The notes: generated from the letters alone by a model not told the origin. 64,000 nucleotides of DNA from Ignavibacteriales bacterium (GCA_050259235.1 JBLNAG010000001.1:86640-150639), one strand, 5' to 3'. Counted from the stretch's first letter, positions 8,061-64,000 are shown. Made by a program: numbers and translations.

Positions 8061-8122
8061 AGTAAAACCTCCGTCAATATTATACCATATTTTAACATAA
8101 AAAAAGATACTTAATTAAGTAT

Positions 8123-9331: not shown

Positions 9332-9408
9332 AAAAACCTCCTACATATCATATGTTCGGTATCCTACCTTTTTAATTGTACCACATAATAAAAAAAATTG
9401 ACATATTT

Positions 9409-10281: not shown

Positions 10282-10282
10282 C

Positions 10283-10711: not shown

Positions 10712-10740
10712 TTTACCACCAACCTCATTATAACAAAAAA

Positions 10741-10759
10741 ATCTAGTAAAATACTAGAT
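10741..10759 (-). terminator. Copy 1 of a repeated palindromic terminator element (AACAAAAAAATCTAGnnnnnnCTAGATTT)
   Basis: ATCTAGTAAAATACTAGAT hairpin; on the minus strand it is followed by a 7-T run. Downstream of the GNAT gene. Confidence 0.6.
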
Positions 10760-10764
10760 TTTAT

Positions 10765-11196: not shown

Positions 11197-11220
11197 CTAT
11201 ATTTATTATAACAAAAAAAT

Positions 11221-11238
11221 CTAGCCTATACTAGATTT
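11221..11238 (-). terminator. Copy 2 of the same palindromic terminator element
   Basis: ATCTAGCCTATACTAGAT with flanking AACAAAAAAA and TTTAATTACT; downstream of mntH. Confidence 0.6.
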
Positions 11239-11266
11239 AATTACTCTAACTATAAGCCCATTTTTA

Positions 11267-12580: not shown

Positions 12581-12614
12581 TACTTAATAAATATAATTGC
12601 CTTTGACTTAAAAA

Positions 12615-12628
12615 GTTAGGACCAACTA
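12615..12628. promoter_or_regulatory. Putative MntR/DtxR-family operator palindrome TTAGGACCAACTAA in the mntH promoter region
   Basis: Imperfect palindrome (TTAGnnnnnnCTAA, iron-box-like) about 35-48 nt upstream of the mntH start codon, between the divergent mntH and mntR genes. Confidence 0.35.
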
Positions 12629-12748
12629 AATTTATTTGCCTGATATAAAGTATGAAAGTGTTTTTTAAGTGTTACACTTCAGTGATTATTTCTAGTGATA
12701 TTGTATATATTGTAGTAAGTATATAATATATGGAGTTGATGAATATAT

Positions 12749-13222
12749 ATGAATAATAATGATTTTCTTACTTTTAGTAACTATATGAAAAAAGATAAAA
12801 AGATGCTTACTGCTTCAATGGAAGATTATCTTGAAATGATTTATAGGCTTTCATCAAATGCCAATTTTACAAGAATCAATGACTTATCTAAAGCTCTTAA
12901 TGTTCATCCACCTTCTGCTACTAGGATGGTTCAACGTCTTGGTAAATTAAATTATTTAAAATATGAAAAATATGGAATGATTATTCTTAAAGGAAAGGGT
13001 TTAAAATTAGGGAAATTGTTATTGACACGTCATAATACCATTGAAAGTTTTCTATCACTCCTTGGTATTTCTAAAGAAGAAGTTGTAAAGGAAACTGAAA
13101 AAATTGAACATACCGTTAGTGCGGAAACAACTAAATGTCTTAATGATTATATAAACTTTGCTAAAGATAATCCTGATGTTATTACTAAATTTAAAGAATA
13201 TAGAGAAAAAGAATTACCATAG
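12749..13222 (+). CDS. mntR: DtxR/MntR family metal-dependent transcriptional regulator
   Basis: SMEDYLEMIYRL start and HPPSATRMVQRL winged-helix region are typical of MntR/DtxR; divergent to mntH. Confidence 0.85.
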   Translation: MNNNDFLTFSNYMKKDKKMLTASMEDYLEMIYRLSSNANFTRINDLSKALNVHPPSATRMVQRLGKLNYLKYEKYGMIILKGKGLKLGKLLLTRHNTIESFLSLLGISKEEVVKETEKIEHTVSAETTKCLNDYINFAKDNPDVITKFKEYREKELP

Positions 13223-18813: not shown

Positions 18814-20061
18814 TTAATATATTAATGTTTTTAGATAATCGACATCATCATCACGTACAACTGTATATCTTGGAATCAATAATTTATTAACGCCTTGTAC
18901 TGCCTTACGATATCCTCCTATAAATGCTAATTTAAACCCAGCTTCTTTTAATACCGAAACTGCATAGTCATTATATTCATAAAAAGGATAACAAAATACT
19001 TTACTATTATTTAATATTTCACTACTAGTTTTTAAATCAGCAAGTAACATTTCTTTTGGAAGACATTTTATTCCCCCACCTTGACCTCCAGGACATACAC
19101 CTTGTTTATGAAGATTATTTCCATGAGAATGTAATTCTAAATAATCTGATTTATATATTTCAGGACTATATGAACTAGTAATTAAAAACAATGTAGCATT
19201 AATTTTATATTTTTCTAATATTGGTATAGCTCTAACACCAAGATACCCATCATCAATGGTAATAGAAACACTATTAGTTGGTATTCTAATTTTGCCATCT
19301 AAAAATAAATCCATTTCCTCCATAGTTAATGAAAGAAAGTTATTATCCGCAAAAAACTTTATATGTGAATCAAATTGACTCTCTGTGTGACATATTTCTG
19401 AAGTACAGGTTTCGACATTTGGATCATATATAGCGTGATAAGTTAATATGGCAATATTGTTTCTTGAATTATCTATAGTATTTTGAGTAGTAACTACTTC
19501 TTTAACATCACTTTTTAATACATAATATAATTCATTATTTAATTCAACATAATATTTATCAGTATCTTTGATAATAATCGGTAAATTATATGATTTGTTA
19601 ATAGTTAAAACTAAATTATTATCATTATAAAAATTAGTAATATTATTAGTAACAATATTCTCATTAAATAATATATATTTCTTGTATCTAGTATTCTTTT
19701 CACTAGGATTTTCAATTTTATCGACATCTTGATATTTAACATAATAATTTAATTCATCAATTAAAAAGTATTCTGTTTCATAAGTAATATTTATATTGCT
19801 TAATTTTAATTCATAGCCTTGATCAATACTACCGATTTGTTTATATTGTTCATCATATAGGTTTGTCTTTTTATTTGTAATAACAAAATTTCCATAATGT
19901 TTATTGATATCATCTACTTTATTTTGTCTTTCTTTTTCTATTTTTTCTTGCTTAGCAATTTCTTCTTTTTTATTTTGTTGATCAATTATGTAAGTAATGG
20001 TAAGTATACTTATTAATAATAGAATAATACTTAAAAAAATAAATACTACTTTCTTTTTCAT
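18814..20061 (-). CDS. Polysaccharide deacetylase (NodB homology/CE4) with N-terminal TM anchor
   Basis: SITIDDGYLGV...NATLFLI and HSHGNNLH motifs of the CE4 family; N-terminal TM helix and Lys/Glu-rich linker. Confidence 0.75.
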   Translation of the reverse strand: MKKKVVFIFLSIILLLISILTITYIIDQQNKKEEIAKQEKIEKERQNKVDDINKHYGNFVITNKKTNLYDEQYKQIGSIDQGYELKLSNINITYETEYFLIDELNYYVKYQDVDKIENPSEKNTRYKKYILFNENIVTNNITNFYNDNNLVLTINKSYNLPIIIKDTDKYYVELNNELYYVLKSDVKEVVTTQNTIDNSRNNIAILTYHAIYDPNVETCTSEICHTESQFDSHIKFFADNNFLSLTMEEMDLFLDGKIRIPTNSVSITIDDGYLGVRAIPILEKYKINATLFLITSSYSPEIYKSDYLELHSHGNNLHKQGVCPGGQGGGIKCLPKEMLLADLKTSSEILNNSKVFCYPFYEYNDYAVSVLKEAGFKLAFIGGYRKAVQGVNKLLIPRYTVVRDDDVDYLKTLIY

Positions 20062-31594: not shown

Positions 31595-32116
31595 TTACTC
31601 CTTACTACATTGCTGTATATATTTTGCTGCATCTAATAAATCATTTGCAAAAATATACTTATCATTTTTAGACCCAATTATTATTCCCTCAATAGATGTA
31701 TATTCACAAATAGATAAATCTCGTTCTCTATCACCTATTACATAAGATTTATTTAAATCAGGATTATATTCTTCAATTGCTTTTTTATATAGTCCAATTT
31801 TAGGTTTCCTACAATCACAATTGTCTTCCTCAGTATGTGGGCAAAAATAAACATTTGTAATTTTAATTCCAGCCTCAAGTAGCTTATCAATAAAATATTT
31901 ATTAAACTTATTATATTCATCTATAGTATACATTTTTCTTCCAATTCCCGATTGATTTGTTACTACAATTAACATATAACCCATCTTAGTCATTAGCTTT
32001 AGACCTTCAATTGCATTTTTCATAAAAACTAAGTCTGTTAACTTATGAACATAACCATAATCTACATTAATTGTTCCATCTCTATCTAAAAAAATAACTT
32101 TATTCATTTTTTCCAT
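31595..32116 (-). CDS. gmhB: D-glycero-D-manno-heptose 1,7-bisphosphate 7-phosphatase GmhB (HAD, histidinol-phosphatase-like)
   Basis: VIFLDRDGTIN (HAD motif I), TNQSGIGR, CDCRKPK and GDRERD motifs. Confidence 0.8.
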   Translation of the reverse strand: MEKMNKVIFLDRDGTINVDYGYVHKLTDLVFMKNAIEGLKLMTKMGYMLIVVTNQSGIGRKMYTIDEYNKFNKYFIDKLLEAGIKITNVYFCPHTEEDNCDCRKPKIGLYKKAIEEYNPDLNKSYVIGDRERDLSICEYTSIEGIIIGSKNDKYIFANDLLDAAKYIQQCSKE

Positions 32117-33557
32117 AAACCTTTAATATTTTATCAATTATTTTTGTTGTGGACTTTCCGTCTCTAAGGGAAATAAATTCTATTCTCCCTCCATAACTCT
32201 CAATAACTTCTTTTTCTGGAACATATTTATTTTTCCAATCATCACCCTTTATAGAAATATCGGGTTTTAAATAATTTATTAAATTTACTGGTGTTTTGTC
32301 CTCCATTAGTATCACATAATCAACACACTCTAATTCACTAATCATTTCAACACGATCCTCTTGATTGATTATCGGCCTTAGATCACCTTTATTTTCTCTT
32401 ACTGAATCATCAGAATTTATAGCAACAATCAATATATCTCCAAAACTTTTTGCCTTTTTAAAAGATGATATGTGACCAACATGTAATAAATCAAAACAAC
32501 CGTTGGTAAATACAATTTTTTTACCTTTTTCTTTCAAATCATCAATAATGTATTTAGCAGTTTCATTAGATATCAATTTAAAATCTCCAGTATTATAAAT
32601 ACTACTTAACAATTCATTTAAACTAACTGTACTTGCGCCAAATTTTGATATTACGACAGATGCAGCTGAATTTGCTACTTGACATATTTCTCCAATTTCA
32701 AAAGCAAGTGGTAATAGTATTGCAAATATTGAAACAACTGTATCACCAGCACCAGTTACATCAATAACATCTTTAGCAAATGTAGGAAAATCAATTTTAC
32801 TATGTTTTGAATAATCAAATAAAGAAATTCCTTTTTCTGATCTTGTTAATGCAAGATACTTTAAATGAGTATCTTCACAAAGTTTTAATCCAGCATCAAA
32901 AATTGAATCTTCAGAATCAAATTTATTATTTGAAACAATTCCTAATTCTTTAACATTAGGGGTAAGAATTGTAGCATGATTATATTTGCTATAGTCCTTT
33001 CCTTTTGGATCAACAATTATAGGGATATTGTTTTCATTAGCATGTTTAATCATAATTTGAGCAATATCTTTACTTACTGCTCCTTTTCCGTAGTCAGATA
33101 TAACAAATGAATCTATTCCATCAAATATTTCTTTCAAATTTGATAAAATAAATTTTTTATATTCTTCAGGCATCTCCATAATTATTTCTTCATCTAAACG
33201 AAGAAATTGTTGATTTTTAGACACAATTCTTGTTTTTATAATAGTCTTAGCATTCTTACACTTTTTTAGAAATTGTGTGTCAACTCCTGCTTCATATAAA
33301 TTATTTATAAAGAAGGTTCCATCTTCATCTTCTCCAACACAACCTATTGGTCTTACCTTTGCTCCAAGTGTAATTATGTTATTTATAACATTTCCTGCAC
33401 CACCTAATCGTGACATTTTGCTATTTACTTCAACAACTGGTACAGGTGCCTCTGGTGAAATACGGCTAACATTTCCATCAATGTATTTATCAACCATATA
33501 ATCACCAAAAACTAAAATTGTTTCTTCTTTTATTTTACTTAACATTTCAACTTTCAT
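32100..33557 (-). CDS. hldE: Bifunctional D-beta-D-heptose 7-phosphate kinase / D-beta-D-heptose 1-phosphate adenylyltransferase HldE (RfaE)
   Basis: N-terminal pfkB/ribokinase-like domain (DVTGAGDT). C-terminal cytidylyltransferase-like domain FTNGCFDLLHVGHISSFKKAK (HxGH). Confidence 0.9.
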   Translation of the reverse strand: MKVEMLSKIKEETILVFGDYMVDKYIDGNVSRISPEAPVPVVEVNSKMSRLGGAGNVINNIITLGAKVRPIGCVGEDEDGTFFINNLYEAGVDTQFLKKCKNAKTIIKTRIVSKNQQFLRLDEEIIMEMPEEYKKFILSNLKEIFDGIDSFVISDYGKGAVSKDIAQIMIKHANENNIPIIVDPKGKDYSKYNHATILTPNVKELGIVSNNKFDSEDSIFDAGLKLCEDTHLKYLALTRSEKGISLFDYSKHSKIDFPTFAKDVIDVTGAGDTVVSIFAILLPLAFEIGEICQVANSAASVVISKFGASTVSLNELLSSIYNTGDFKLISNETAKYIIDDLKEKGKKIVFTNGCFDLLHVGHISSFKKAKSFGDILIVAINSDDSVRENKGDLRPIINQEDRVEMISELECVDYVILMEDKTPVNLINYLKPDISIKGDDWKNKYVPEKEVIESYGGRIEFISLRDGKSTTKIIDKILKVYGKNE

Positions 33558-44414: not shown

Positions 44415-45161
44415 TTACTTGTTTTTCATGTAATTTATATACTCATCACACACTTTATTAGCAGGACCAACTTTTATAATTTCGCCTTTATCTAACCATA
44501 TGACCTTATTACATAAAGATTTAATTGAATCTATTGAGTGAGAAACATATAAAACTGTAGTTCCCCCACCTATCATATTTCTCATTTTATTTTCACTTTT
44601 CTGTTGAAAGTTAATATCTCCAACGGATAAAATTTCGTCAACAATTAATATTTCCGGATCAACTACTGTGGCAATAGAAAAAGCTAATCTTGCCACCATT
44701 CCAGAGGAAAAATTTCGAACTGGAACATCAAGAAATTCAATTAATTCAGAAAATTCAACAATCTCATCAAATTTACTATCTATAAATTTTTTTGAATATC
44801 CTAACACAGCACCATTCAAATAAATATTTTCTCTGGCTGTTAAATCCGGATCAAAACCAGCACCAAGTTCAATCATAGGACAAATATTACCTCCAATTTG
44901 AACTTTTCCTTTTGTAGGCTTCATAACCCCAGCAACGATTTTCAATAATGTTGATTTTCCAGCACCATTGCTACCAATAAATCCTACAACTTCGCCCTTT
45001 TCAACTTCAAAATTAACATTTTTTAATGCCCAAAAGTCACTTTTATTTTTCTTTATTTTGCCACTAAATAAATCAACAAAAAATTGTTTTATAGAGAAAT
45101 TTCTTTCTATTCCCAAATTAAAGCGCATCGATACATTTGTAATTTTTATCATTTTTTTCAC
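44415..45161 (-). CDS. tagH: ABC transporter ATP-binding protein, polysaccharide/teichoic acid export (TagH/Wzt-like, short form)
   Basis: Walker A GSNGAGKST, signature LSGGM..., Walker B ILIVDE; NLGIERNFSIKQFF N-terminus typical of TagH/Wzt. Confidence 0.85.
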   Translation of the reverse strand: MKKMIKITNVSMRFNLGIERNFSIKQFFVDLFSGKIKKNKSDFWALKNVNFEVEKGEVVGFIGSNGAGKSTLLKIVAGVMKPTKGKVQIGGNICPMIELGAGFDPDLTARENIYLNGAVLGYSKKFIDSKFDEIVEFSELIEFLDVPVRNFSSGMVARLAFSIATVVDPEILIVDEILSVGDINFQQKSENKMRNMIGGGTTVLYVSHSIDSIKSLCNKVIWLDKGEIIKVGPANKVCDEYINYMKNK

Positions 45162-45166
45162 CTTCT

Positions 45167-45976
45167 CTATACATAGTAAATAAATTTATCTTGATATTTT
45201 CTAAAAATAAATAGTCCTATAAATAATGTAATTAATGCTGACGTTCCACACCAAATAAAATTAGACAGAGTTGGTAATTGGCTTTCCAAAATAATAGTAC
45301 GAGCAAAATCAATATATTGATATAAAGGATTTAATTTAAAAAAGAACTGATATTTTGGTGCAATCATAGAAATATCATACATAATTGGAGTTAAATAGGT
45401 CCATATTGTAATAACAATTCCATATATATAGAACATATCTCTTAAAAAAACAGATATAGTAGCTAAAACAAAGCTAACTCCAATCGTAAACAATAATAAG
45501 CACATAAATGCATATGGCAATAGTAAATGTAAAAAAGTTATTGCACATTCAGTATCACCACTACCAGTAAATATTATGACAAGATAAAGAGGTATTAATG
45601 TTAGAAGAAAATTAATACCTACAAATAAGATTTTTGATAAAGGAAATATATATTTAGGAATATATATTTTATTTATCAGTGAAAAATTAGCTACAACAGA
45701 ACTCATAGCAAGATTAGATGCTTCACTAAAATAATTAAAAAATGTTAATCCTATCATTAAATATACTAGATAGTTAACACCTGGCACACTAAATTTAAAT
45801 ACATTTGAAAAAACTAATGCCATAACAGTCATCATCAATAAAGGATATAATAAACTCCATATAACACCTAAGAAAGATCTTTTATATTTAACCTTAAAAT
45901 CTCTTGCTATTAATTGTTGCAATAAAAAAGAGTATCTTTTTAAATTGTAATATATATTTTTTATAAACATAAACAC
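45167..45976 (-). CDS. tagG: ABC-2 type transporter permease (TagG/Wzm-like)
   Basis: 269 aa, 6 TM helices, ABC-2 family layout; immediately upstream of tagH. Confidence 0.8.
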   Translation of the reverse strand: MFMFIKNIYYNLKRYSFLLQQLIARDFKVKYKRSFLGVIWSLLYPLLMMTVMALVFSNVFKFSVPGVNYLVYLMIGLTFFNYFSEASNLAMSSVVANFSLINKIYIPKYIFPLSKILFVGINFLLTLIPLYLVIIFTGSGDTECAITFLHLLLPYAFMCLLLFTIGVSFVLATISVFLRDMFYIYGIVITIWTYLTPIMYDISMIAPKYQFFFKLNPLYQYIDFARTIILESQLPTLSNFIWCGTSALITLFIGLFIFRKYQDKFIYYV

Positions 45977-46181: not shown

Positions 46182-47978
46182 ATGAGAAATATAAGTAGAA
46201 AAGATGTAATTAATGAATTAAGAAAGCAAAATAATATCTCGAATAAAGATAATATGGTTATAAACACTATAAAAGTAACATTTTTAATAATTGCGTTAGT
46301 AGTAAGTGTAATATATTTAATTTATACAATATCTACTTCTAAAGATGAAATAAATCAAATCTATTTAATAATAAATAGTTCAATTATTACTGGATTAATG
46401 TTATTTTTGTCATTAGCAATGATAATAAAAAAGAAAACAATCCAAGGATTACTTTCTATATTTACAGCAATGATATTTATTTGTTTTATTGGATTTAATA
46501 TATCAGTAAGTGCTAATAAATTAAAGTTACCTTTACAAGCAACACTCCAAGATTTTACTAGTGCTAATATTAATGATGCACTACTCTGGGCTAATGAACA
46601 TGATATAAGTGTTGAAACTTTATATGTAAATAGTGATGATGTTGAAGAAGGTAATATTATAAGTCAAGATATAAAACCTAACACCTTATTAAAAGGAATT
46701 AAAAAAATTGTCCTTACAATATCTAGTGGTCCAAATTATGATAAAGAAGTGGTTATCTCCAATATGATTGGATGGAATATTGATGAAGCTTTAAAAGTAA
46801 TAAAAGATAATTTTTTAAATAATGTTACTATCAATTTTGAAGTTAATGATAGTATAGAAAAAAATATAATTATTAGTCAAAGTGTTAATGGACAGATAAA
46901 AAGAAATACTAAAATAGCTATTACTGTTTCACTTGGTAGTGCCTCTACCCTAGCCCCAATTGAAATTATTGATTTAAAAAATAAAAGTTTATTTGATGCA
47001 ACATATTACTTACAAAATAATGGTATCCAATATGAATTAACATATGAATTTAGTGATAAAGTCAAGAAGGATTATATTATTAGTCAAAGTGCTAAAAAAG
47101 GAACAACAATTGATCCAAAAGTTGATAAAGTTACTTTGATTGTTTCTAAAGGTAAAGAAATTAAGAGCCCGGATTTAAAAGGTATGGAAGTTGAAGAAAT
47201 CGTTAATTGGGTTATTAAAAATAATTTAAAAATTGTATTTGAAGAACAATATGATTATAGTATTAAATTAGGTGAAATAATCAGCACTAATTATAAAAAA
47301 GATGATATTATTTCTGAAGGTACTATTATTAAGGTAGTTACTTCAAAAGGTCAATTAATGATGAAATCATTTAATAATTTAAGTGAATTTAGAACATGGG
47401 CAGCTAGTTATAACATTGCATATAAAGAAGTATATGAATACAACAACACAGTTGCTAAAGGTAATATTATAAAATTATCTCAAGAAGCTAATACGCCAAT
47501 TGATCCAACATCTACTATAACTGTTTATGTATCAAATGGTAAACCAATTACAGTTCCATATTTTATTGGTAAGAATAAAACTACTATAGTTAGTAACTGT
47601 AACAGTTTAGGATTAAATTGTACATTCTATTATACTGGGTATTCAAACACAGCTAAAGATGTGGCTACTAATCAAAATGTTGCTAGTGGTGCTACTGTTA
47701 TATCTGGCACTTATGTAAGTATTGGTTTAAGTAGTGGACCTGCTCAATCATTTAGTGTTTATATACAAGATACATTATTTGGGTCAACTGCTGATGCTAC
47801 TATTGCTAATTTAACATCTTATTTTAATACAAATTGTCCTGGAGTATATTTTACATATGTTAAGAAGAGTTCTAACACTGGTGCAGCAGCAGGATTCATT
47901 CATGAAGATTCACCAATTAAAGGTGGTAATAATACATTTACTCAAGGTCGTACATATACAATTTGGGTAATACAATAG
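46182..47978 (+). CDS. Membrane-anchored multi-PASTA-domain protein (no kinase or PBP domain)
   Basis: N-terminal TM helices, then at least 5 PASTA-like ~65-aa repeats (e.g. IISQSVNGQIKRNTKIAITVSLG, IISQSAKKGTTIDPKVDKVTLIVSKG). C-terminal ~90 aa of unknown function. Confidence 0.65.
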   Translation: MRNISRKDVINELRKQNNISNKDNMVINTIKVTFLIIALVVSVIYLIYTISTSKDEINQIYLIINSSIITGLMLFLSLAMIIKKKTIQGLLSIFTAMIFICFIGFNISVSANKLKLPLQATLQDFTSANINDALLWANEHDISVETLYVNSDDVEEGNIISQDIKPNTLLKGIKKIVLTISSGPNYDKEVVISNMIGWNIDEALKVIKDNFLNNVTINFEVNDSIEKNIIISQSVNGQIKRNTKIAITVSLGSASTLAPIEIIDLKNKSLFDATYYLQNNGIQYELTYEFSDKVKKDYIISQSAKKGTTIDPKVDKVTLIVSKGKEIKSPDLKGMEVEEIVNWVIKNNLKIVFEEQYDYSIKLGEIISTNYKKDDIISEGTIIKVVTSKGQLMMKSFNNLSEFRTWAASYNIAYKEVYEYNNTVAKGNIIKLSQEANTPIDPTSTITVYVSNGKPITVPYFIGKNKTTIVSNCNSLGLNCTFYYTGYSNTAKDVATNQNVASGATVISGTYVSIGLSSGPAQSFSVYIQDTLFGSTADATIANLTSYFNTNCPGVYFTYVKKSSNTGAAAGFIHEDSPIKGGNNTFTQGRTYTIWVIQ

Positions 47979-50994: not shown

Positions 50995-51873
50995 CTATTC
51001 AAATACAAAAGGAATACCACCATTAGGTGGACAAGTATTATTAGTACTTATTGGAAGACAATAAATAAAATATTTTATTCCTTCTTGATAATTCTTTAAA
51101 TTAATATTGATATCTTTTGCTTCATCAACGTGTAACTCAAAAGCATCATCTATTACTTCTTTATTATCTAAGTAGTTAATTGTTCCTGCTCCACTAATTA
51201 ATTTATTTCCTTTATTAGCTAAATTAACATTGATTAAGTGTTGATTATTTAGTACATCTTTATTACTTATTAGTTTAATTTCTAGATCATCTATTCTTTG
51301 TTTCATATTAGTAGTAATATAAACAATAACTTCTCTAGTTAAACTTTTCTTATTACCATAATAATCTGAAACTTCATAAGTTAAATTATATATACCAGGA
51401 GTAGTAATATCAACATCCCCAACAACGTTTACTTTAGTGTTACTTACATTTATTTCATAACCAGGATCAGTAAATTTAGTATCTTTTTTTACTAAAAGTT
51501 CTTCATCACCTTTTAAAGTAAGTGCAATATCTTTTTCTTCAATAGTATCAGGTACTAATATTTTTACCCACATTGGTGAATATATTGAAGCAATATATCC
51601 TTGAATACCGTTTTTAGTTTCAATTTTATACCATAAATAGTTATCATCAAAACTAAAATCTTTTATTGTATATACTTCTCCTTTATTAATAACCCCTATT
51701 TTCTTAGAATCAATAGTAGCATCTTCTCTAATATTAATTGAATCAGTTATTACCTCAAATTGATAAACACTATTATTAATATCATTTGTTTGATCTTCAT
51801 TAATATTAATAGTTTCCTTTTTAGAACAACCACTAATTAATATCAAAATTACTAATATTATTACTTTTTTCAT
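50995..51873 (-). CDS. Putative lipoprotein
   Basis: Lipobox ILISGCS after a hydrophobic leader; beta-rich C-terminus. Confidence 0.5.
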   Translation of the reverse strand: MKKVIILVILILISGCSKKETININEDQTNDINNSVYQFEVITDSINIREDATIDSKKIGVINKGEVYTIKDFSFDDNYLWYKIETKNGIQGYIASIYSPMWVKILVPDTIEEKDIALTLKGDEELLVKKDTKFTDPGYEINVSNTKVNVVGDVDITTPGIYNLTYEVSDYYGNKKSLTREVIVYITTNMKQRIDDLEIKLISNKDVLNNQHLINVNLANKGNKLISGAGTINYLDNKEVIDDAFELHVDEAKDININLKNYQEGIKYFIYCLPISTNNTCPPNGGIPFVFE

Positions 51874-55422: not shown

Positions 55423-56097
55423 TCACCTTACTATATCATTAATAATGTAAGCAGCACATAATAAACCGGCTGTTCCTGGGACAAAAGATGTTGAACCAAT
55501 TGTTTTAGAATTAGTTTTTTTAGGTAATTCTTTACTACATACAACTAATACTTTATCTTTAATTTTTTCTTCACTTACCATCTTACGAATAACTCTAGCT
55601 AAAGGATCATAACTAGTTTTGCGAATATCAATTATTTCTAATTTAGTAGGATCTAATTTATTTCCTGTTCCCATTGAACTAATAAATTTAATTTTTCTTC
55701 TTAAACATTCCTTAATTAATTCCATTTTAGTTAACACAGTATCACAGGCATCTACTACATAATCAATTTCTTCATTAAATAATATATGAATATTATCTTT
55801 AGTAATAAAATCTCTAATTTTAGTAACTTTGCATTTAGGATTAATTGACATAATTCTTTCTTCCATTGCATCAACTTTATGCATACCAATTGTAGAATGA
55901 GTTGCAATTATTTGACGATTAAGATTAGTAATTTCCACTTTATCATTATCAACTATAATAATTCTACCTATTCCACTTCTAGCCAAAGCTTCAACAACAT
56001 ATCCTCCAACTCCACCAAGTCCTAAAACTAATACTGTTTTATCCTTAATTAAGTTAATTTTATTTTCTACTAATATTTCTAATCTACTAAATTCCAT
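55423..56097 (-). CDS. tcdA: tRNA threonylcarbamoyladenosine dehydratase TcdA (ThiF/MoeB E1-like)
   Basis: VLVLGLGGVGGYVVEALARSGIGRIIIVDNDKVEITNLNRQ nucleotide-binding motif of the ThiF/TcdA family. Confidence 0.85.
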   Translation of the reverse strand: MEFSRLEILVENKINLIKDKTVLVLGLGGVGGYVVEALARSGIGRIIIVDNDKVEITNLNRQIIATHSTIGMHKVDAMEERIMSINPKCKVTKIRDFITKDNIHILFNEEIDYVVDACDTVLTKMELIKECLRRKIKFISSMGTGNKLDPTKLEIIDIRKTSYDPLARVIRKMVSEEKIKDKVLVVCSKELPKKTNSKTIGSTSFVPGTAGLLCAAYIINDIVR

Positions 56098-56125
56098 ACA
56101 TATCCCCCAATAATAATCTTTATTA

Positions 56126-56134
56126 ATTATAGCA
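56126..56134 (-). promoter_or_regulatory. Extended -10 (TGCTATAAT) promoter element of tcdA
   Basis: Minus-strand read is TGCTATAATtaataaagattattattGGGGGatatgtATG. Confidence 0.5.
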
Positions 56135-56149
56135 CATTAATTTACATAA

Positions 56150-56322
56150 AAAAAGCCCCGGATAATCGGTAGCCAATAACGACAAAACCTGTAAGTCCAG
56201 GTGGGCATCACATTACTAATTTTAGGATTCTTATATAAAATAAGCTTTCAACACCATCAGTAAATTAGATTCCCAATCGTTTAAAATATAGTGGTTTTTC
56301 TTAGAAGCAACCGTATTATCCA
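56150..56322 (-). ncRNA. ssrS: Probable 6S RNA (SsrS/BsrA-like)
   Basis: Own promoter on the minus strand (GTGACA-17nt-TGCTATAAT at 56332-56360). ~175-nt transcript whose 5' end CCUGGAUAAUACGGUUGC pairs with its 3' end GCUACCGAUUAUCCGGGG, a long terminal closing stem. Internal hairpin ACCUG-GACUUA-CAGGU; ends in GGGGCUUUUU. Lies immediately upstream of tcdA (yrvM homolog), as B. subtilis 6S-1 does in the aspS-yrvM intergenic region. Confidence 0.5.
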
Positions 56323-56394
56323 GGTACTTATATTATAGCATAATTATATGTTAATGTCACTACTAACAATGATAAATATTTTTAAATAAAGAAT

Positions 56395-58425
56395 TTATAA
56401 ACCTGTACCTACTGCCAAGACAGCACGGAAGGAAACGGTAGTATACACAGTACCATCAGACATACTGAAACCAAATGCCCCAGCAGTTCCTCCAAGGTTG
56501 TAATCACGACCACGGATAAATAATGGAAGACTAGCATAAGCCATATAAGCATAATCATTAAACCATGCAGTTGCACCAGTTCCAGTAGAACTTATCTCAT
56601 ATACTCCATCACCTTTTACATTTATTGCGTTAGTATAGTTTATAGCTTGATCATCAGTTGTTATTGTATATACATCTTTATATTTGGCAGCAGCATTCAA
56701 AATACTACTTGCAAATGTCGTTAAATTAGCATTTCCATTATTTACATATGCTGAAGTGTTTTCACAAGCCCCACCGCTTGTATCGTATATTCCATAAATA
56801 TTTCCCGTTGTACTTGCTTTTACACCATTAATTGTATCGTAGGTTCTTAAACAACCTGTAGTTGCAGCAGAAATAGCACTATCTCCAGCACAACCTGTTG
56901 TATAATTATTAGCTGGATTTATCCATATCTCTTCAGTATTTTTACCATAAATAGATTTACTTAAATATATCATTGCTCCCCATTCAATATTTTTCATTAA
57001 ATGTGTATCAATACCAGTTCCGGTTGTTCCCCAACCATATCGACTGTTTGTTTCCATGTTACGAGAAGCAGTGAACATATTTGATGCTGTTGTACTACGA
57101 AGAGATACTACATTTGGTTTAAAGTCTACTGCTGCAGTTGTACCACTTGCTTCAAATTTTGCCACCCATATTCCAGTTAATTCTGTAGTTCCAAAGGTGA
57201 AAGCTGGATGATTAGTCCATTTATTATTTGAAGCATTAGCTGTAGTACCAGTATCAATAGCTCCTATAACACTACTATTCCAATTATCATTGGTGTTTTT
57301 TGTAAATTGTATTTCTATTGTTCCAGCGGTATTAGTATGCCATCCACTTGATATTTTATAAACAAATCTTGGAATCCAAACCCAAAATGAACCATCTGAT
57401 GTTTTAGCATTTGCCCACTTCTTAGAATCATAGTTATACCAATCTGGATCACTTGAAGTAGTATTTACCCAACTTGTACCATTCCATTTTATAGGTGTCA
57501 TTCCTGTTGCTAATGCAGGAGAATTAACATAAGAGTTTCCTACAGTAATTGTACGTTTACCAGTAGCAACATTACCACTACTATCTGTTACTTTATAAGT
57601 TAAATAATATGTACCTGGTAAAACACTTAAATTACCAGTGATTTCAATTTTACTTGTTAAATCACCATCATAATTATCAGTTGCAGTAGCACCTGCTCTA
57701 GCATTAAATGTTAATACATCAGTTGAATTCAGATTAACATTACTTGGAACTACTAAATTAGGTTTAGTTCTATCACTTACCACTACTGTTCGAGTAACAG
57801 TTGTTTTATATCCATTATCCGGATCAGTTACTTGATATTTTACAGTATAGCTACCAAATTGATTAGTATTAATAGTACTTCCATCTCCACTGATGGTTGT
57901 TACTACATTTGATGCAACAATTACATTTCCTTCGCTATCTAAAGCTGTTACTCCTGGATCAGTATATGTATTCTTTATTTCAACATATAAAATTGCACCA
58001 CCGTTCAACATTAATATAGGTGCTTCAATATTAATCTCAGCTGTTCTAGTAGGAGTTCCCGTATCAGTTAATATTGCATATTGAAAACCATCGCTTTTCT
58101 TTGTAATGGTAAGAAACATATCATTTGGAAATAGTTCATCAGTTAAAGGATTCAATATATCTTCGCTAACGTAATCACCTTGTTTTAATTGAAACATTGT
58201 TAATGTAATTTTTTCTTCATTTTCAGATGGTAAATAAAATAAATTATCTGTTGCCCATTCTTTTAGACCTGATTCTATATTATTAATTTGTGTTTCATAT
58301 AATTTTTGTTTACTATTTTTAATATTTTTTTCTACTGTAGGAAGTGCTATTAAAACAATTAGTCCTAATATACTAATTACTCCTAATAGTTCAATTAAAG
58401 TAAATGCATTCTTCTTCATTAACAC
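56395..58425 (-). CDS. Giant modular type IV pilin-like protein (676 aa): class III signal, pilin-like N-domain, two DUF5011 Ig-like domains, conserved W-rich ~330-aa domain
   Basis: N-terminus M(L)MKKNA|FTLIELLGVISILGLIVLIALP (prepilin motif, Glu+5). YTDPGVTALDSEGN and ATATDNYDGDLTS are DUF5011 hallmarks. Probable true start is ATG two codons in, giving MKKNAF. Confidence 0.7.
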   Translation of the reverse strand: MLMKKNAFTLIELLGVISILGLIVLIALPTVEKNIKNSKQKLYETQINNIESGLKEWATDNLFYLPSENEEKITLTMFQLKQGDYVSEDILNPLTDELFPNDMFLTITKKSDGFQYAILTDTGTPTRTAEINIEAPILMLNGGAILYVEIKNTYTDPGVTALDSEGNVIVASNVVTTISGDGSTINTNQFGSYTVKYQVTDPDNGYKTTVTRTVVVSDRTKPNLVVPSNVNLNSTDVLTFNARAGATATDNYDGDLTSKIEITGNLSVLPGTYYLTYKVTDSSGNVATGKRTITVGNSYVNSPALATGMTPIKWNGTSWVNTTSSDPDWYNYDSKKWANAKTSDGSFWVWIPRFVYKISSGWHTNTAGTIEIQFTKNTNDNWNSSVIGAIDTGTTANASNNKWTNHPAFTFGTTELTGIWVAKFEASGTTAAVDFKPNVVSLRSTTASNMFTASRNMETNSRYGWGTTGTGIDTHLMKNIEWGAMIYLSKSIYGKNTEEIWINPANNYTTGCAGDSAISAATTGCLRTYDTINGVKASTTGNIYGIYDTSGGACENTSAYVNNGNANLTTFASSILNAAAKYKDVYTITTDDQAINYTNAINVKGDGVYEISSTGTGATAWFNDYAYMAYASLPLFIRGRDYNLGGTAGAFGFSMSDGTVYTTVSFRAVLAVGTGL

Positions 58426-58511
58426 CTCTATCTTATATAGAAATTATATAATTTATTACATTACCTCTTTTTTCAAATTGATTAAATCTTATTTTTCAAT
58501 AAGTATATTAA

Positions 58512-60806
58512 TTATTGACATACTTCTTCAAAATAATTTATATTTCTAATAGCTGTTGCTACATTCCCTGATTTATCTGTCACAGTATAAGTTACTGTGT
58601 GCGTATCATAAACATCTTCTACTTTTTGAATTTGACTTGTTAGATCTCCATCAACATTATCAATAGCTGTTGCTCCAGCATCAATATAATTGAGTTGACA
58701 TACGTGGAAAGGAACAGGATTATCACCAAGTATAGTTATTACCGGAGGGGTTGTATCTGGTGAAGTCGGTATTACTCCTGGAGTTGATACTAGAATAGGA
58801 CGGAAACTATGATAAGTACCACCATTACCATTGTAATAGCTAAAATTGAATACACCTGCACTGCCATTGATATTGTAAAGACCACCACGTATGAACCATG
58901 GAGAGGTACTATAAGCTGTTCTAGAATAAGTTCCATACCATGAATTTACATCACTAGCCCCACCGGAACTGCTTGTTTCATAGATGGCATCACCTTTTTT
59001 ATTAACTGCTAAGGCATAATTGTTATCCCAATTGTCAGTTGCACCAACAGTATAAATATCTTTATATTTGCTATCTGCGTTTATGATACTATTACCATAA
59101 GTTGTTAAACTAGCATTACCATTGTTAATATAAGCAGCTACATATTCATTTGCTCCACCGGACATATCATATATGCCATAAATATTGCCTGTTGTACTTG
59201 CTTGTTGTCCATTGCTTGTATCGTATGTGTACTGACATCCTGCATAAGATGAAGCTGTTTCACTTGCCCCTGCACAACCAGTAATATATGTGTTACTGTT
59301 ATTTAACCATATTGCTGCATTTTTACCATAAATTGATTGTGATAAATATGTTGCTGCTCCCCATTCTATGTTCTTAGCCATATGAGTATCGATATCATTT
59401 CCACTCGTTCCCCACCCATATCGACTATTAGTTTTCATGTTAAGAGTAGCTATAAACATATTACCAATAGTTATACTGCGTAGTGATGAAACATTTGGCT
59501 TAACATCAACAGCACTTGTTGTTCCACTTGCTTCAAATTTAGCCACCCATATTCCAGTTAATTCCGTAGTTCCAAAGGTGAAAGCAGGATGATTAGTCCA
59601 TTTATTATTTGAAGCATCAGCTGTAGTACCAGTATCAATACTTCCTATAACACTACTGTTCCAATTATCATTGGTATTTTTTGTGAATTGAATATCAATT
59701 GTTCCTGCAGTATTTGTATGCCATCCACTTGATATTCTATAAACAAACCTTGGTATCCATACCCACATCGATCCATCTGCTGTTTTAGCATTGGCCCATT
59801 TTTTAGAGTCATAGTTATACCAATTTGAATCACTTGAAGTGGTATTTACCCAACTTGTACCATTCCATTTAATAGGTGTCATTCCGGTTGCTAATACAGG
59901 AACATTAACATAGGAATTTCCTACAACAATTGTACGCTTACCACTAGCAACATTACCACTACTATCGGTTACTTTATAAGTTAAATAATATGTACCTGGT
60001 AAAACACTTAAATTACCAGTAATTTCGATTTGACTTGTTAAATCTCCATCATAATTATCAGTAGCAGTAGCATCAGTTCTTGCATTAAAAGTAAGTACAT
60101 TAGCAGGAGTTAATGTGATATTACCTGGAACTACTAAATTAGGTTTGGTTTTATCGCTTATTGCAACCGTACGAATCACGGCTGTTTTATACCCATTATC
60201 TGGATCTGTTACTTGATATTTTACTGTATAATTACCAAACACATTAGTATTAATAGAAGTTCCGTCTCCACCAATAGTTGTTACTACATTTGATGCAGCA
60301 ATTACATTTCCTTCGCTATCTAAAGCTGTTACTCCTGGATCAGTATATGTATTCTTTATTTCAACATATTGAAATGGTGAACCATTTATTATTAACACTG
60401 GTGCATCAGGATTTATTACAGCAGTTCCTGTTCTTGTACCAGTATCAGTTAATATTGCATATTGAAAACTGTTGCTTTTCTTTGTAATGGTAAGAAACAT
60501 ATCATTTGGAAATAGTTCGTCATTCAAAGGATTTAATATATTCTTTTCAATATATCCCCCTTGTTTTAATTGATACAACGTCAAAGTAACCATTTCGCCA
60601 TTTTCTGAAGGTAAATAAATTAAATTATCCGCCACCCAATTCATTAGTCCTGATTTTATATTACTAATTTGAGCTTCATATAATTTTTGTTTACTATTTT
60701 TAATATTCTTTTCTACTGCAGGAAGTGCTATTAAAACAATTAGTCCTAATATACTAATTACTCCTAATAGTTCAATTAATGTAAATGCATTCTTCTTCAT
60801 AAACAC
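58512..60806 (-). CDS. Giant modular type IV pilin-like protein (764 aa), paralog; third DUF5011 domain at the C-terminus
   Basis: Same N-terminal prepilin motif and domain order; C-terminal extra Ig-like domain IDAGATAIDNVDGDLTSQI. Confidence 0.7.
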   Translation of the reverse strand: MFMKKNAFTLIELLGVISILGLIVLIALPAVEKNIKNSKQKLYEAQISNIKSGLMNWVADNLIYLPSENGEMVTLTLYQLKQGGYIEKNILNPLNDELFPNDMFLTITKKSNSFQYAILTDTGTRTGTAVINPDAPVLIINGSPFQYVEIKNTYTDPGVTALDSEGNVIAASNVVTTIGGDGTSINTNVFGNYTVKYQVTDPDNGYKTAVIRTVAISDKTKPNLVVPGNITLTPANVLTFNARTDATATDNYDGDLTSQIEITGNLSVLPGTYYLTYKVTDSSGNVASGKRTIVVGNSYVNVPVLATGMTPIKWNGTSWVNTTSSDSNWYNYDSKKWANAKTADGSMWVWIPRFVYRISSGWHTNTAGTIDIQFTKNTNDNWNSSVIGSIDTGTTADASNNKWTNHPAFTFGTTELTGIWVAKFEASGTTSAVDVKPNVSSLRSITIGNMFIATLNMKTNSRYGWGTSGNDIDTHMAKNIEWGAATYLSQSIYGKNAAIWLNNSNTYITGCAGASETASSYAGCQYTYDTSNGQQASTTGNIYGIYDMSGGANEYVAAYINNGNASLTTYGNSIINADSKYKDIYTVGATDNWDNNYALAVNKKGDAIYETSSSGGASDVNSWYGTYSRTAYSTSPWFIRGGLYNINGSAGVFNFSYYNGNGGTYHSFRPILVSTPGVIPTSPDTTPPVITILGDNPVPFHVCQLNYIDAGATAIDNVDGDLTSQIQKVEDVYDTHTVTYTVTDKSGNVATAIRNINYFEEVCQ

Positions 60807-61006
60807 CTAACAAACACTTCTAGTAAAATCCTCAGGTAAGACCAATATTATATATAAGTGTATTATATAATTTTTGCCAAAATATGTCAATGTTTGAAAA
60901 AGTACAAAAAGAAGTAATAAAAATAAAACCCCAATTCAATTTTATATTGAATTAAGGTTCTATTCTCTTAAAATTATTTTTTTCAATTAATGTAATATTT
61001 AAACTT

Positions 61007-63577
61007 TTATGGTTCTAACCACACTTTATATAGTTTAGTTGTACCATTTTCTAATCCTCTTACATTAAGAACATATTTTATATAAAAATTTCCATTCATA
61101 CTTGAAATATCCAAACTAGTAATATTCCTTGAACCACTTGGATAAGTACCACAATTTATAGTAATCTTGGGTTCATCAGGTTGAGCAACTGTTTTTGATG
61201 CACTTATTATCAAATTCATGTAATTACAACTACCAGACTGTGAGGAATCAATCTTTAAAGTACTATAATCTGTTAAATCAACCGGATTATCAGTGACCCA
61301 AGTAGCAGATCCCACAGTATAATCATCACTACTTGATACAGTGGTAAGAAGATCTGTCGCCTCTTTTGTTCTAGTAACTGTTACATACGCACTACTTGTT
61401 GCAGAACCTACAACCCAAGCACTACTGTTAACCCCTTCATTATAAAGATAAGTAATTGCAGGTGGAGGTGTGATTATTAAAACTGGACGGAAACTAGAAT
61501 AATAATCAACATTTCCTCCTGTAGGACCAAAGGCAAACGTGTCTGCTAAATAGCCTTCTTCCCAATAATGGCCGCGAGTAAACCAAGGATTGTTTAAGCC
61601 AGGCATAACAGACTCTCCTGTAAACCATGAACATTCACCACACCCTGTCGGCCCAAAATTACTTGTTTCGTAAATTGCATCGCCTTTATGGGAAATAGTT
61701 AAAGAATAATTTTCATTTTCATCAGCACTACTTCCTTTACTATATATATCCTTATATTTTACATTTGCATTGATTATTGAAGAACCATATGTATTTAAAC
61801 TACTACTAGCATTATCTACATAAGCAGCTACATATTCGAATGTGCCACCACTCATATCATATATACCATATATTGTTCCTGTGGTACTTGCATTTACCCC
61901 ATTTGTTGTTTCATATGTATTTCTACACCCACCAATACTATCATTAGCCGAGTTACTTGCACAGCCTGTTGTTACTGGCTCGGAATCATTAATCCATACT
62001 TCACCATTTTTGCCATACGTTGATTGAGCTAGATATGCTACTGCTCCCCATTCAATATTCTTTATTAAATGAGTGTCTATTTCTGTTCCACTTGTTCCCC
62101 ATCCATATGTACTGTTGGTCTCCATATTTCTTGATACTGTAAAAGCATTACCTATTTTAAGACATATCCATGGGGATGCATTTGGTATTATTTTAACTGT
62201 TTTTGTTGTGACGTCATCAGCAGCAACACAACCATATCCATTAGATGCTACACCTGAAGCTGCTGTAGCTTCAAACTTAGCCACCCATATTCCAGTTAAT
62301 TCTGTAGTTCCAAAGGTGAAAGCTGGATGATTAGTCCATTTATTATTTGAAGCATTAGCTGTAGTACCAGTATCAATACTACCTATAACACTACTGTTCC
62401 AGTTATCATTAGTGTTTTTTGTGAATTGTATATCAATTGTTCCTGCAGTATTTGTATGCCATCCACTTGATATTTTATAAATAAATCTTGGAATCCAAAC
62501 CCAAAATGAACCATCTGCAGTTTTAGCATTTGCCCATTTCTTAGAATCATAATTATACCAATTTGGATCATCAGCAGTTGTATTTTTCCATGAACTTCCA
62601 TCCCATACAATTGGTGTCATTCCTGTTGCTAATTCTGGAGCATTAACGTATGTACTACCAACAGTTATTGTTCTTTTTTTAGAAGTAGTGTTATTACTAC
62701 TATCTGTTACTTTATATGTTAGATAATAGGTACCAGGTATTATACTCAAATCACCCATAATTTCAATTTGACTTGTTAAATCTCCATCATAATTATCAGT
62801 TGCTGTAGCACCTGTCCTTGCATTAAAAGTAAGTGCTTCAGCTGGAGCTAATACAATATTACCCGGTACTACTAATGATGGTTTAGTTTTATCACTTACA
62901 GTTACTGTACGAGTGACTGTTGTTTTATATCCATTATCAGGATCAGTTACTTGATATTTTACTGTATAAGTGCCAAAAGCACTTGTACTAATACTACTAC
63001 CAGAACCACTAATAGTTGTTATAACATTAGACTGAGCAATTAAATTACCTTCACTATCTAAAGCAATTACTCCAGGATCAGTATATACATCAAATATTTC
63101 AACACGTTGCATTGGTGAACCATTTATTATTAACACTGGTGCATCAGGATTTATTACAGCAGTTCCTGTTCTTGTACCAGTATTAACTAATACTTCATAT
63201 TCAAAAGTATTCAGTTTTTTAGTAATAGTTACTAGCATATCATTAGGAAATAATTCGTCTGTTAACGGATTCAATATACCTTTATTAACATATCCCCCTT
63301 GTTTTAATTGATATAATGTCAAAGTAATTATTTCGCCATCTTCAGAAGGTAAATAAGATAAATTATCAGTTGCCCATTCCTTTAGACTTGATTCTATATT
63401 ACTAATTTGTGTTTCATATAGTTTTTGTTTACTATTTTTAATATTTTTTTCTACTGCAGGAAGTGCTATTAAAACAATTAGTCCTAATATACTAATTACT
63501 CCTAATAGTTCAATTAATGTAAATGCGTTTCTTTTCATAAGCACCCCTTTAACATATATTTCTATAAATTTTATCAA
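61007..63577 (-). CDS. Giant modular type IV pilin-like protein (856-aa ORF; likely 843 aa starting at the ATG at 63538), paralog with internal insertion and ~150-aa C-terminal extension
   Basis: RBS AAAGGGGTG then ATG AAA AGA AAC GCA TTT gives MKRNAFTLIELLGVISILGLIVLIALP. Same DUF5011 pair and W-rich domain; insertion TAASGVASNGYGCVAADDVTTKTVKII... Confidence 0.7.
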   Translation of the reverse strand: MIKFIEIYVKGVLMKRNAFTLIELLGVISILGLIVLIALPAVEKNIKNSKQKLYETQISNIESSLKEWATDNLSYLPSEDGEIITLTLYQLKQGGYVNKGILNPLTDELFPNDMLVTITKKLNTFEYEVLVNTGTRTGTAVINPDAPVLIINGSPMQRVEIFDVYTDPGVIALDSEGNLIAQSNVITTISGSGSSISTSAFGTYTVKYQVTDPDNGYKTTVTRTVTVSDKTKPSLVVPGNIVLAPAEALTFNARTGATATDNYDGDLTSQIEIMGDLSIIPGTYYLTYKVTDSSNNTTSKKRTITVGSTYVNAPELATGMTPIVWDGSSWKNTTADDPNWYNYDSKKWANAKTADGSFWVWIPRFIYKISSGWHTNTAGTIDIQFTKNTNDNWNSSVIGSIDTGTTANASNNKWTNHPAFTFGTTELTGIWVAKFEATAASGVASNGYGCVAADDVTTKTVKIIPNASPWICLKIGNAFTVSRNMETNSTYGWGTSGTEIDTHLIKNIEWGAVAYLAQSTYGKNGEVWINDSEPVTTGCASNSANDSIGGCRNTYETTNGVNASTTGTIYGIYDMSGGTFEYVAAYVDNASSSLNTYGSSIINANVKYKDIYSKGSSADENENYSLTISHKGDAIYETSNFGPTGCGECSWFTGESVMPGLNNPWFTRGHYWEEGYLADTFAFGPTGGNVDYYSSFRPVLIITPPPAITYLYNEGVNSSAWVVGSATSSAYVTVTRTKEATDLLTTVSSSDDYTVGSATWVTDNPVDLTDYSTLKIDSSQSGSCNYMNLIISASKTVAQPDEPKITINCGTYPSGSRNITSLDISSMNGNFYIKYVLNVRGLENGTTKLYKVWLEP

Positions 63578-64000
63578 AATAAGATATTTTTAGTATTAAA
63601 AAAGAAGTAATTTTACTTCTAACTACTTCAAATACAAAAAATATTAAATATTTTTATCACAATCTATACTTTATTTGAACATTTATTTCCTTATTTGCTA
63701 TGCTCATCAAGTAATTAGTGCAATCGGTATTTGAGTTGTCAAAATTCATTCGTTAGATAACACACCTATATATTCTTCAAGTTCACGTTTTGATATATGA
63801 GGAAGTTATTTTAATATAAAAATTAAATAATTTCTTTACCAATCTCTATTAGTGTTGTTCTTTTATTATATATAAATACATTATATAATTTATCAATATA
63901 TAAGTCAACAATCTATACAAAAAAAAAGAAGTAATATTACTTCTTTGCTTGTTCTAAAACATTAGTAACTGCTTCATAATACTTGTCAACTGAAATAGTT

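Follow-up and report, generated by a model that had tools for sequence, protein, structure and literature searches.

We analyzed a 64,000-nucleotide stretch deposited under the name Ignavibacteriales bacterium (GCA_050259235.1 JBLNAG010000001.1:86640-150639), the whole of which is called the window here, and concentrated on three tandem minus-strand genes at 56395-63577 that code for large pilin-like proteins with a long domain in common. The corresponding open reading frames (ORFs) are listed as 676, 764 and 856 amino acids (aa); their probable ATG starts lie at 58419, 60800 and 63538, from which the proteins, termed p1, p2 and p3, begin with MKKNAFTL or MKRNAFTL. Thus, p1 (56395..58419) has 674 aa from its ATG, the ORF list giving a GTG start at 58425; p2 (58512..60800) has 762 aa and is from its ATG 100% identical to NCBI MGE5455599.1 (762 aa; P0121); and p3 (61007..63538) has 843 aa from the ATG at 63538, upstream of which stands an AAAGGGG.

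All three proteins share the same layout, namely a prepilin-type N-terminus, followed by two immunoglobulin (Ig)-like domains of the PF16403 family and then by the long domain, for which we establish below a C-type lectin (CLec) fold of the formylglycine-generating enzyme (FGE) type. The order in p1 is a prepilin signal with the alpha1 helix, a small head, the two Ig-like domains and, at the extreme C-terminus, the CLec domain. Its pilin module (58021..58419, minus strand, as are all parts of these genes) combines a class III signal-like leader, MKKNA/FTLIELL, with the hydrophobic alpha1 helix and a small beta head; its spacer of two Ig-like domains (PF16403, Bact_surface_Ig-like; 57541..58020) is recognized by a family match with E 1e-25 and in the AlphaFold2 model; and its CLec domain (56398..57540; 381 aa), which is homologous to the modelled domain of p2, extends to the C-terminus of the protein. 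The domain of p2, the copy used for the AlphaFold2 model, spans 58773..59921 (383 aa), and that of p3, with a 17-aa insertion after KFEA, spans 61466..62659 (398 aa); the limits of all three were checked by translation. After the CLec domain, p2 has an additional Ig-like/HYR domain of 86 aa (58515..58772) and p3 an additional 152-aa extension without a family match (61010..61465). Such additions are unusual: in 59 of 65 relatives, the domain is C-terminal and ends no more than 12 aa before the stop.

Extent, conservation and fold of the shared domain

A sequence-only reading of this DNA had described a conserved Trp-rich domain of ~330 aa in the three proteins. A long shared domain with the motifs it quoted is indeed found after the Ig-like domains, and Trp makes up 3.7-4.3% of its residues, but its length is ~380-400 aa (381-398). 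That reading also took the domain for the best-conserved part of the paralogs, which is true of its first ~135 aa only: these are 87-93% identical among p1-p3, about equal to the pilin signal and alpha1 (86-95%, depending on the limits chosen), whereas identity is 63-70% across the whole domain, 59-67% in its middle third, 39-48% in its last third and 35-45% in the final ~50 aa, the least conserved segment of the entire proteins. Synonymous divergence between the paralogs likewise climbs from 5′ to 3′ in all three genes (56395-63538), the share of identical-aa codons with differing DNA being 6-11% in the signal and alpha1, ~20% in the N-terminal part of the domain and 42-61% in its C-terminal parts. 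From the sequences, this suggests gene conversion or homogenization of the 5′ parts, or else a mosaic or more recent shared ancestry, and part of the 5′ conservation may be due to such homogenization and not to functional constraint alone.

Direct searches with the full proteins and the isolated copies recovered no significant match for the domain in Pfam, NCBIfam, PHROGs or PDB sequences, the sole matches being noise (DUF7265, E 0.44; a PHROG tail protein, 0.02; PA2201, 0.6). Nor did the window proteins or the isolated domains reach the gathering score of the FGE-sulfatase family, PF03781, with no match to it at E <= 1-10; yet 19 of 58 relatives, scanned singly, match it weakly (best E 2e-4). 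A profile built from the domain alone across the family gave a match in the PDB sequences to TaqVP, the variable protein of a Thermus aquaticus diversity-generating retroelement (DGR), with E 1.5e-3 and with the motifs HPAF, H-x-M-K-N-x-EW and G-x-YD-x-x-G-x-x-WE aligned; the same profile gave PvdO at E 0.077.

The AlphaFold2 model of the p2 domain, made from an alignment with 57 family sequences (p1 and 56 relatives), has a mean predicted local distance difference test (pLDDT) score of 96.4 and a predicted template-modelling score of 0.95. Against the PDB, Foldseek returned TaqVP (5vf4) as the top match (E 1.8e-10, probability 1.0, template-modelling score 0.43-0.46), along with PorK (E 5e-4), the Treponema denticola variable protein TvpA (2y3c; E 1e-3) and several FGEs (E 1e-3 to 1e-2); matches to EgtB and OvoA were insignificant (E mostly > 0.4), except for one marginal match to EgtB (1.2e-2). 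Against BFVD, the database of predicted viral structures, it returned phage tail-fibre, tail-collar and SUMF1-like proteins with E 1e-10 to 1e-6. Of the lectin, glycoside-hydrolase, C-type-lectin-like and FGE-sulfatase-like folds that the sequence-only reading had put forward as candidates for such a comparison, the last two are thus the ones recovered. The shared domain is a divergent version of the FGE-type CLec fold and not a new fold; the view that it could not be assigned to any family gives way to the confident match to the TaqVP/TvpA/FGE fold, the TaqVP profile match, the weak PF03781 matches of the relatives and the relatives that are DGR targets (see below), and with a confident match to a characterized family the claim of a novel domain falls.

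The FGE-type CLec fold is the scaffold of DGR variable proteins, such as TaqVP and TvpA, and of many phage receptor-binding proteins; the fold is already well known, as is its use as a variable scaffold for binding. TaqVP and TvpA are the best fold matches of the window domain, TaqVP being also its only significant sequence-profile match in the PDB. They have in common with it the location at or near the C-terminus and the order of the motifs HPAF, H-x-M-x-N-x-EW and G-x-x-D-x-x-G-x-x-WE, followed by RGG...AG.F.F...SFR, the part that is the variable region (VR) in the DGR-linked relatives. Unlike these proteins, to which it is only ~15% identical, the window domain adds a highly conserved N-terminal elaboration of ~108 aa and several inserts, which accompany the template-modelling score of 0.43-0.46; it is fused to a pilin-like carrier and Ig-like spacers instead of being a single-domain protein or a lipoprotein; and its window is devoid of a template repeat (TR), a reverse transcriptase (RT) and an Avd gene. 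With the SUMF1-like proteins of PF03781 and the FGEs it shares the fold subtype, but the stretch that corresponds to the FGE active site lacks Cys and is hypervariable rather than conserved. The match to the FGE-sulfatase-like lipoproteins PorK/GldK of the type IX secretion system likewise concerns the fold, PorK being a lipoprotein with a structural role in the ring of a diderm secretion system and having neither a pilin carrier nor a variable C-terminal face.

The family to which the domain belongs is large. A search of 5.8 billion protein clusters yielded >7,465 relatives at E <= 1e-3, with E down to 1e-153; an exhaustive search of 50%-identity cluster representatives yielded 3,933. Together with the 63-70% identity of the paralogs, these matches put the similarity well outside anything that chance would produce. 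The best relatives are 60-66% identical and are mostly annotated just as prepilin-type or hypothetical because the family has no dedicated Pfam or NCBIfam model. About 40-46% of the relatives keep the prepilin motif. At least 538 loci in a set of species-representative genomes encode a relative; the 80 loci listed all come from uncultured sources and are nearly all labelled Bacilli, Clostridia, Bacillota, Tenericutes or Mollicutes, with two labelled Muribaculaceae and with many isolate names indicating gut or rumen. Among 2.9 million viral contigs, there were seven loci with a relative. Giant members of the family, with 2-5 tandem copies of the domain overall among the 50%-identity representatives, are also found: P0123 (2338 aa), P0126 (4516 aa), P0129 (3713 aa), P0127 and P0128 have 3-5 tandem copies of a ~380-aa domain and no prepilin motif; very large multivalent surface proteins therefore make use of the module as well.

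Retroelement-diversified relatives and the paralogs of the window

We scanned the 80 genome loci, the window and an additional locus (L001, from a chromosome of 1.49 Mb) for imperfect repeats with at least 80% of the mismatches having an adenine in one copy, and also examined the seven viral-contig loci. TR/VR pairs were uncovered at six of the 80 genome loci (L032, L033, L050, L052, L058 and L059) and at three of the seven viral-contig loci (L203, L204 and L205), i.e., at nine of 87 loci in total, with 10-25 mismatches per pair, 88-100% of them at TR adenines. The VR coincides with the last ~110-155 nucleotides of the domain where it is complete, one pair being cut at a contig end, and the TR is at most ~1.3 kb away in all nine; at the six genome loci the VR ends a few codons from the stop and the TR lies ~0.1-0.9 kb downstream. 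The five ungapped pairs of the genome loci display 17-22 A-to-N changes as against 0-3 other changes, and the templates code for Asn-rich sequences, such as NPWFNRGGNYNNGANAGVFNSNNNNGNSNSNNS.

In five of these loci (L032, L033, L052, L058 and L059) the TR is adjoined by an ORF for a DGR reverse transcriptase with the motifs IGNYTSQ and YMDD/FMDD, which was identified by eye in L033 and by a motif scan in the other four. Small Avd-like ORFs precede the RT in L033 and L052, where complete cassettes of variable protein, TR, Avd and RT can be read: in L052, the variable protein at 9518-11119 is followed by the TR at 11226-11381, the RT at 11720-12829 (minus strand) and the Avd-like ORF at 12802-13161 (minus strand); in L033, the variable protein at 7163-8818 is followed by the TR at 9263-9417, the Avd-like ORF at 9935-10279 and the RT at 10264-11298. 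Three of the diversified proteins have prepilin-like N-termini (KKGFTLAELIG in L033, GITLIALV in L032 and L052), those of L058 and L059 have plain transmembrane anchors, and one further diversified protein is a giant. Hence, uncultured gut Bacilli and Clostridia do possess type-IV-pilin-like proteins that are diversified by DGRs. Six other loci (L005, L022, L030, L047, L075 and L077) show codons of the form NNY at 17-18 of 18-19 DGR-hypervariable columns and no TR in the fetched flanks, the score of L077 standing against a background of 36% NNY; judging by these codons, they may be remote or former DGR targets.

The last 50 aa of p1-p3 can be aligned with the TR/VR pairs from five of the related loci across a shared scaffold, P-x-F-x-R-G...A-G-x-F-x-F...G...S-F-R. 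At each of the 19 columns diversified by two or more DGR loci, p1-p3 differ, and all 12 columns that are invariant in p1-p3 are scaffold columns of the DGR loci (Fisher exact p = 6e-4). The VR of the CLec fold is the hypervariable, solvent-exposed binding site of TaqVP, TvpA and Mtd (PMC6328139); thus, the paralogs differ where the binding sites of DGR proteins are hypervariable. The equivalent segments lie at 56413..56565 in p1 (WFNDYAY...SFRAVLA), where it is the putative ligand-binding face, at 58788..58940 in p2 (WYGTYSR...SFRPILV) and at 61475..61627 in p3 (WFTGESV...SFRPVLI). The sequence-only reading had argued from the conservation of the domain against a variable epitope, which is wrong for these C-terminal ~50 aa, the segment that aligns to the DGR VRs and differs at 19 of 19 hypervariable columns. 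In sum, the window proteins have two hallmarks of a DGR variable protein in that a CLec domain has a C-terminal segment homologous to known VRs and close family members are DGR targets (9/87 loci).

The window itself has no template repeat detectable by self-BLAST with the adenine-mismatch filter; when searched by BLAST against the window, the 3′ ends of the domains match the paralogs alone, at 61-69% identity. No ORF of the window has the RT motifs IGxxxSQ and YxDD, and no DGR RT or Avd was found nearby, with the same scan recovering the RTs of L032, L052, L058 and L059. An active local DGR was accordingly rejected, there being neither TR nor RT in the window and the codon variation among the paralogs being ordinary, with position 3 the most variable.

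Interpretation and rival explanations

We propose, with a probability of roughly 0.7, that p1-p3 are modular type-IV-pilin-like surface adhesins, in which the distal FGE-type CLec module binds a ligand by faces that have diverged in the germline, without the action of a DGR in the window. A surface ligand-binding module is the most likely role because the domain is the scaffold that is hypermutated by DGRs in related bacteria. The sequence-only reading had envisaged a functional tip module, and this agrees with what is seen, namely a discrete C-terminal module on a pilin-like carrier in all of p1-p3, with binding as its best interpretation. The pilin-like N-terminus would export and anchor the protein or polymerize into a filament; the two Ig-like domains could serve as a spacer or stalk; the conserved N-terminal two-thirds of the domain would furnish the scaffold; and the last ~50 residues (xPWFxRGGxYxxxxxAGxFxFxxxxGxxxxxxSFRP) the solvent-exposed ligand-binding face. 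The ligand would be a glycan or a protein on the surface of a host, a food particle or another microbe, and display would be on or by a type IV filament. The three tandem copies might then supply three germline-encoded binding specificities, the DGR-linked relatives doing likewise on a far larger scale.

With regard to the carrier, the leader MKKNA/FTLIELLGVISILGLIVLIALP features a Glu at +5 and a hydrophobic stretch, and the N-termini score 17.8-18.6 bits with TIGR02532, above its cut-off of 16.3, and 20.2-20.7 bits with PF07963 (N_methyl), just below its cut-off of 21.2. Partial matches to GspG/ComGC were found at the N-termini of p1-p3, and the family profile matches full-length pilins in the PDB with E 2e-8 to 1e-3. 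In the AlphaFold2 model of full-length p1 (mean pLDDT 78.6), residues 8-59 form a long helix and residues 69-117 a small beta head; a low-confidence linker (118-133) leads to two beta-sandwiches (135-293), beyond which comes the CLec domain. As modelled, p1 thus has the long alpha1 helix on a beta-sheet head that is typical of a type IV pilin, the head being predicted at a moderate pLDDT of about 50-78.

Several points weigh against this interpretation. No member of the family has a known ligand. Ala replaces the near-invariant Gly at -1 of the leader. In the 64-kb window, a motif scan and family searches of 20 of the other ORFs disclosed no pilus machinery, prepilin peptidase or other pilin gene, and the motif scan no GspE/PilB-type ATPase motif; the neighborhood of the relative L001 likewise has no pilus machinery and no RT. 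Moreover, some relatives bear the domain on plain transmembrane anchors (L058 and L059) or in giant multidomain proteins, and therefore display on a pilus is not obligatory for the module. The lack of such machinery in the window, the Ala at -1 and the relatives on simple anchors or in giant surface proteins, together with a pilin head that is small and modelled with moderate confidence (pLDDT 50-75), favor a possible, if doubtful, alternative in which the prepilin-like N-terminus acts in export and membrane anchoring only, as a pseudopilin-like stalk of surface adhesins that are never polymerized into a filament. It is countered by the FTLIELL motif with Glu5, by TIGR02532 scores beyond the cut-off, by the retention of the prepilin motif in about 40-46% of the relatives and by the precedent of characterized modular pilins that enter filaments despite their bulky C-terminal modules (PMC8179133, PMC9934059). 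A further explanation, which we hold to be improbable, concerns the origin of the variation: one gene, most plausibly p1, with its domain ending at the stop, or p2, would be the current target of a remote DGR outside the window and be subject to ongoing adenine mutagenesis. The relatives that are genuine DGR targets and the remote targets reported for Treponema (PMC5758913) speak for it, as do the NNY codons at the 19 hypervariable columns, which number 18/19 in p1 and 17/19 in p2, comparable to the 17-18 of confirmed targets, with nearly all of their residues there being reachable from AAY. However, Tyr, Asn, Asp, His and Phe have NNY codons only, and we do not rely on this footprint because the Tyr/Asn/Ser-rich composition confounds it; by a hand count, p3 has only 12/19, with W, E, E and E at hypervariable columns, which are unreachable from AAY. 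The VR-equivalents of p1-p3 also differ at third codon positions and at synonymous scaffold sites, with 44-61% of the identical-aa codons differing; therefore, they cannot be co-targets of one template and at most one of them could match any TR. Finally, the window shows neither a TR-like repeat nor an ORF with RT motifs, in none of the nine DGR-linked relatives is the TR more than ~1.3 kb from the VR, and the extra domains after the CLec domain set p2 and p3 apart from the 59 of 65 relatives that end at most 12 aa from the stop.

The fold itself raises the prospect of an enzyme of the FGE/EgtB/OvoA type, i.e., a copper- or iron-dependent oxidase or a formylglycine-generating enzyme with an extracellular substrate, for which the matches to FGEs, EgtB and OvoA and the nearly or fully invariant H111, H180, E186, D252 and E259 of the family (domain numbering) could be adduced. 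Yet the EgtB and OvoA matches are insignificant bar the one to EgtB at 1.2e-2, and the proteins nearest to the domain in structure and sequence are DGR variable proteins that are not enzymes. The catalytic Ser333, Cys336 and Cys341 of human FGE are placed by the TaqVP structure paper (PMC6328139) in the segment between the conserved RG(G) and SFR, which has no Cys in p1, p2 or p3, so that the Ser/Cys/Cys set that follows RGG in catalytic FGEs is absent. An FGE-like enzymatic role is very unlikely because this catalytic segment, besides being without Cys, is the most variable part of the protein, and because TvpA has no FGE activity (PMC5758913). No more credence attaches to the genes being remnants of the receptor-binding (tail-fibre) module of a prophage, a scenario suggested by the BFVD matches to tail-fibre and tail-collar proteins, the weak PHROG tail-protein match (E 0.02) and a GC content of the three genes above that of their surroundings. 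Against it stand the prepilin N-termini of p1-p3, the housekeeping or cell-envelope nature of the neighbors, among whose 20 searched ORFs no phage family was matched, and the seven relatives in 2.9 million viral contigs as opposed to the at least 538 in cellular genomes. Both the enzyme and the prophage were rejected on these grounds.

The surface-adhesin interpretation of p1-p3 has parallels in known systems. In modular type IV pilins, such as the Streptococcus sanguinis PilB with a vWA module and PilC with a lectin module (PMC8179133, PMC9934059), a pilin module with a class III signal is joined to a bulky C-terminal module for presentation by a filament, much as the pilin module with its class III signal-like leader is here joined to the CLec domain; according to PMC8179133, such pilins present grafted adhesive modules. 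The window proteins are distinguished from PilB and PilC by an effector that is an FGE-type CLec domain beyond two Ig-like domains, by the Ala at -1 and by the absence of a pil/com locus nearby; in the pertinent passages of PMC8179133, the pilin-Ig-CLec architecture is not named among the frequent modular-pilin architectures. The DGR-diversified type V pilus adhesins of Bacteroides (bioRxiv 10.1101/2024.11.15.621889) resemble them as pilus-borne adhesins with a diversified CLec-type face, and the proteins of L032, L033 and L052 are their type IV pilin analogue; the carriers differ (type V as against type-IV-pilin-like), as does the phylum, and the window copies are without a DGR. The same study reports that cellular variable proteins of Bacillota mostly resemble phage receptor-binding proteins and leaves type IV pilins unmentioned. 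Other surveys identify the FGE-sulfatase-type CLec domain as the largest class of DGR targets, with many appended domains (PMC5758913), and record, among the VR-holding proteins that are rare, a pilin domain of the GspG type (PMC11661182); our full-text literature search found no paper joining DGRs with prepilins.

What is modestly new, hence, is a divergent subfamily of this fold that has no family model despite thousands of members and is often borne on type-IV-pilin-like carriers, and, to the same modest degree, a DGR-less tandem array of paralogs in the window with variation that mirrors DGR hypervariability. More tentatively, the window may exemplify a family, very large and so far undescribed, in which type-IV-pilin-like proteins of uncultured gut and rumen Bacillota carry CLec adhesins; binding-site diversity would come from an adjacent DGR in some relatives and, here, from tandem paralogs with homogeneous 5′ parts and diverged 3′ binding faces, although we regard this generalization as possible rather than likely. 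If true, it would be for type IV filaments what the DGR-diversified adhesins of Bacteroides are for type V pili, and the route by gene duplication would explain the three tandem copies. The supposed unknown domain thus becomes a testable hypothesis, that of a hypermutable DGR binding scaffold on a pilin-like stalk. A family model would allow better annotation of more than 7,000 proteins and flag candidate DGR targets that lack a recognized domain. The proteins would also be useful both for studying how small-genome gut Bacillota attach to hosts, particles and other cells and for comparing a single binding face as diversified by retroelement mutagenesis versus gene duplication.

Genomic neighborhood and source of the window

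A terminator-like hairpin (60966-60920) and, after it, a perfect TTGACA-17-TATAAT site (60890-60862), both on the minus strand (60862..60966) and recognized by a consensus scan only, lie between p3 and p2. Because of this pair, the sequence suggests that p2 has its own promoter and that p3 and p2 are possibly expressed independently; the gap between p2 and p1 is only 86 bp. The consensus scan also marked an 11/12 promoter-like site upstream of p3 at 63880-63908 (minus strand). The GC content of the pilin-like genes (56001-64000) is 30-33%, against 23-27% elsewhere in the window, which may reflect either their Gly/Thr/Trp-rich amino-acid composition or a foreign origin.

The 20 other ORFs searched include genes for ThiF, SMC, LemA, an M48 peptidase, a PASTA protein, an SH3/Ig surface protein and glycosyltransferases. 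The SH3/Ig protein (50995-51873, minus strand; 292 aa), encoded just downstream of SMC, unites a bacterial SH3 domain with a PF16403 Ig-like domain of the same type as those of the pilin-like proteins. A long co-directional run of cell-surface polysaccharide genes (~14000-45000, minus strand) codes for GT2/GT4 glycosyltransferases and TuaG/TuaH-like proteins, and features, also on the minus strand, a PgaB/IcaB-like deacetylase (18814-20061), a bifunctional HldE (32100-33557) and an ABC-2 exporter pair (44415-45976). The four PASTA repeats of the protein encoded at 46182-47978 (plus strand) point to a walled, monoderm-type organism. The NCBI label "Ignavibacteriales bacterium" attached to MGE5455599.1 is probably an artefact of binning or labelling, because the GC content of 23-27%, the PASTA protein and the relatives from Bacilli and Clostridia do not fit it.

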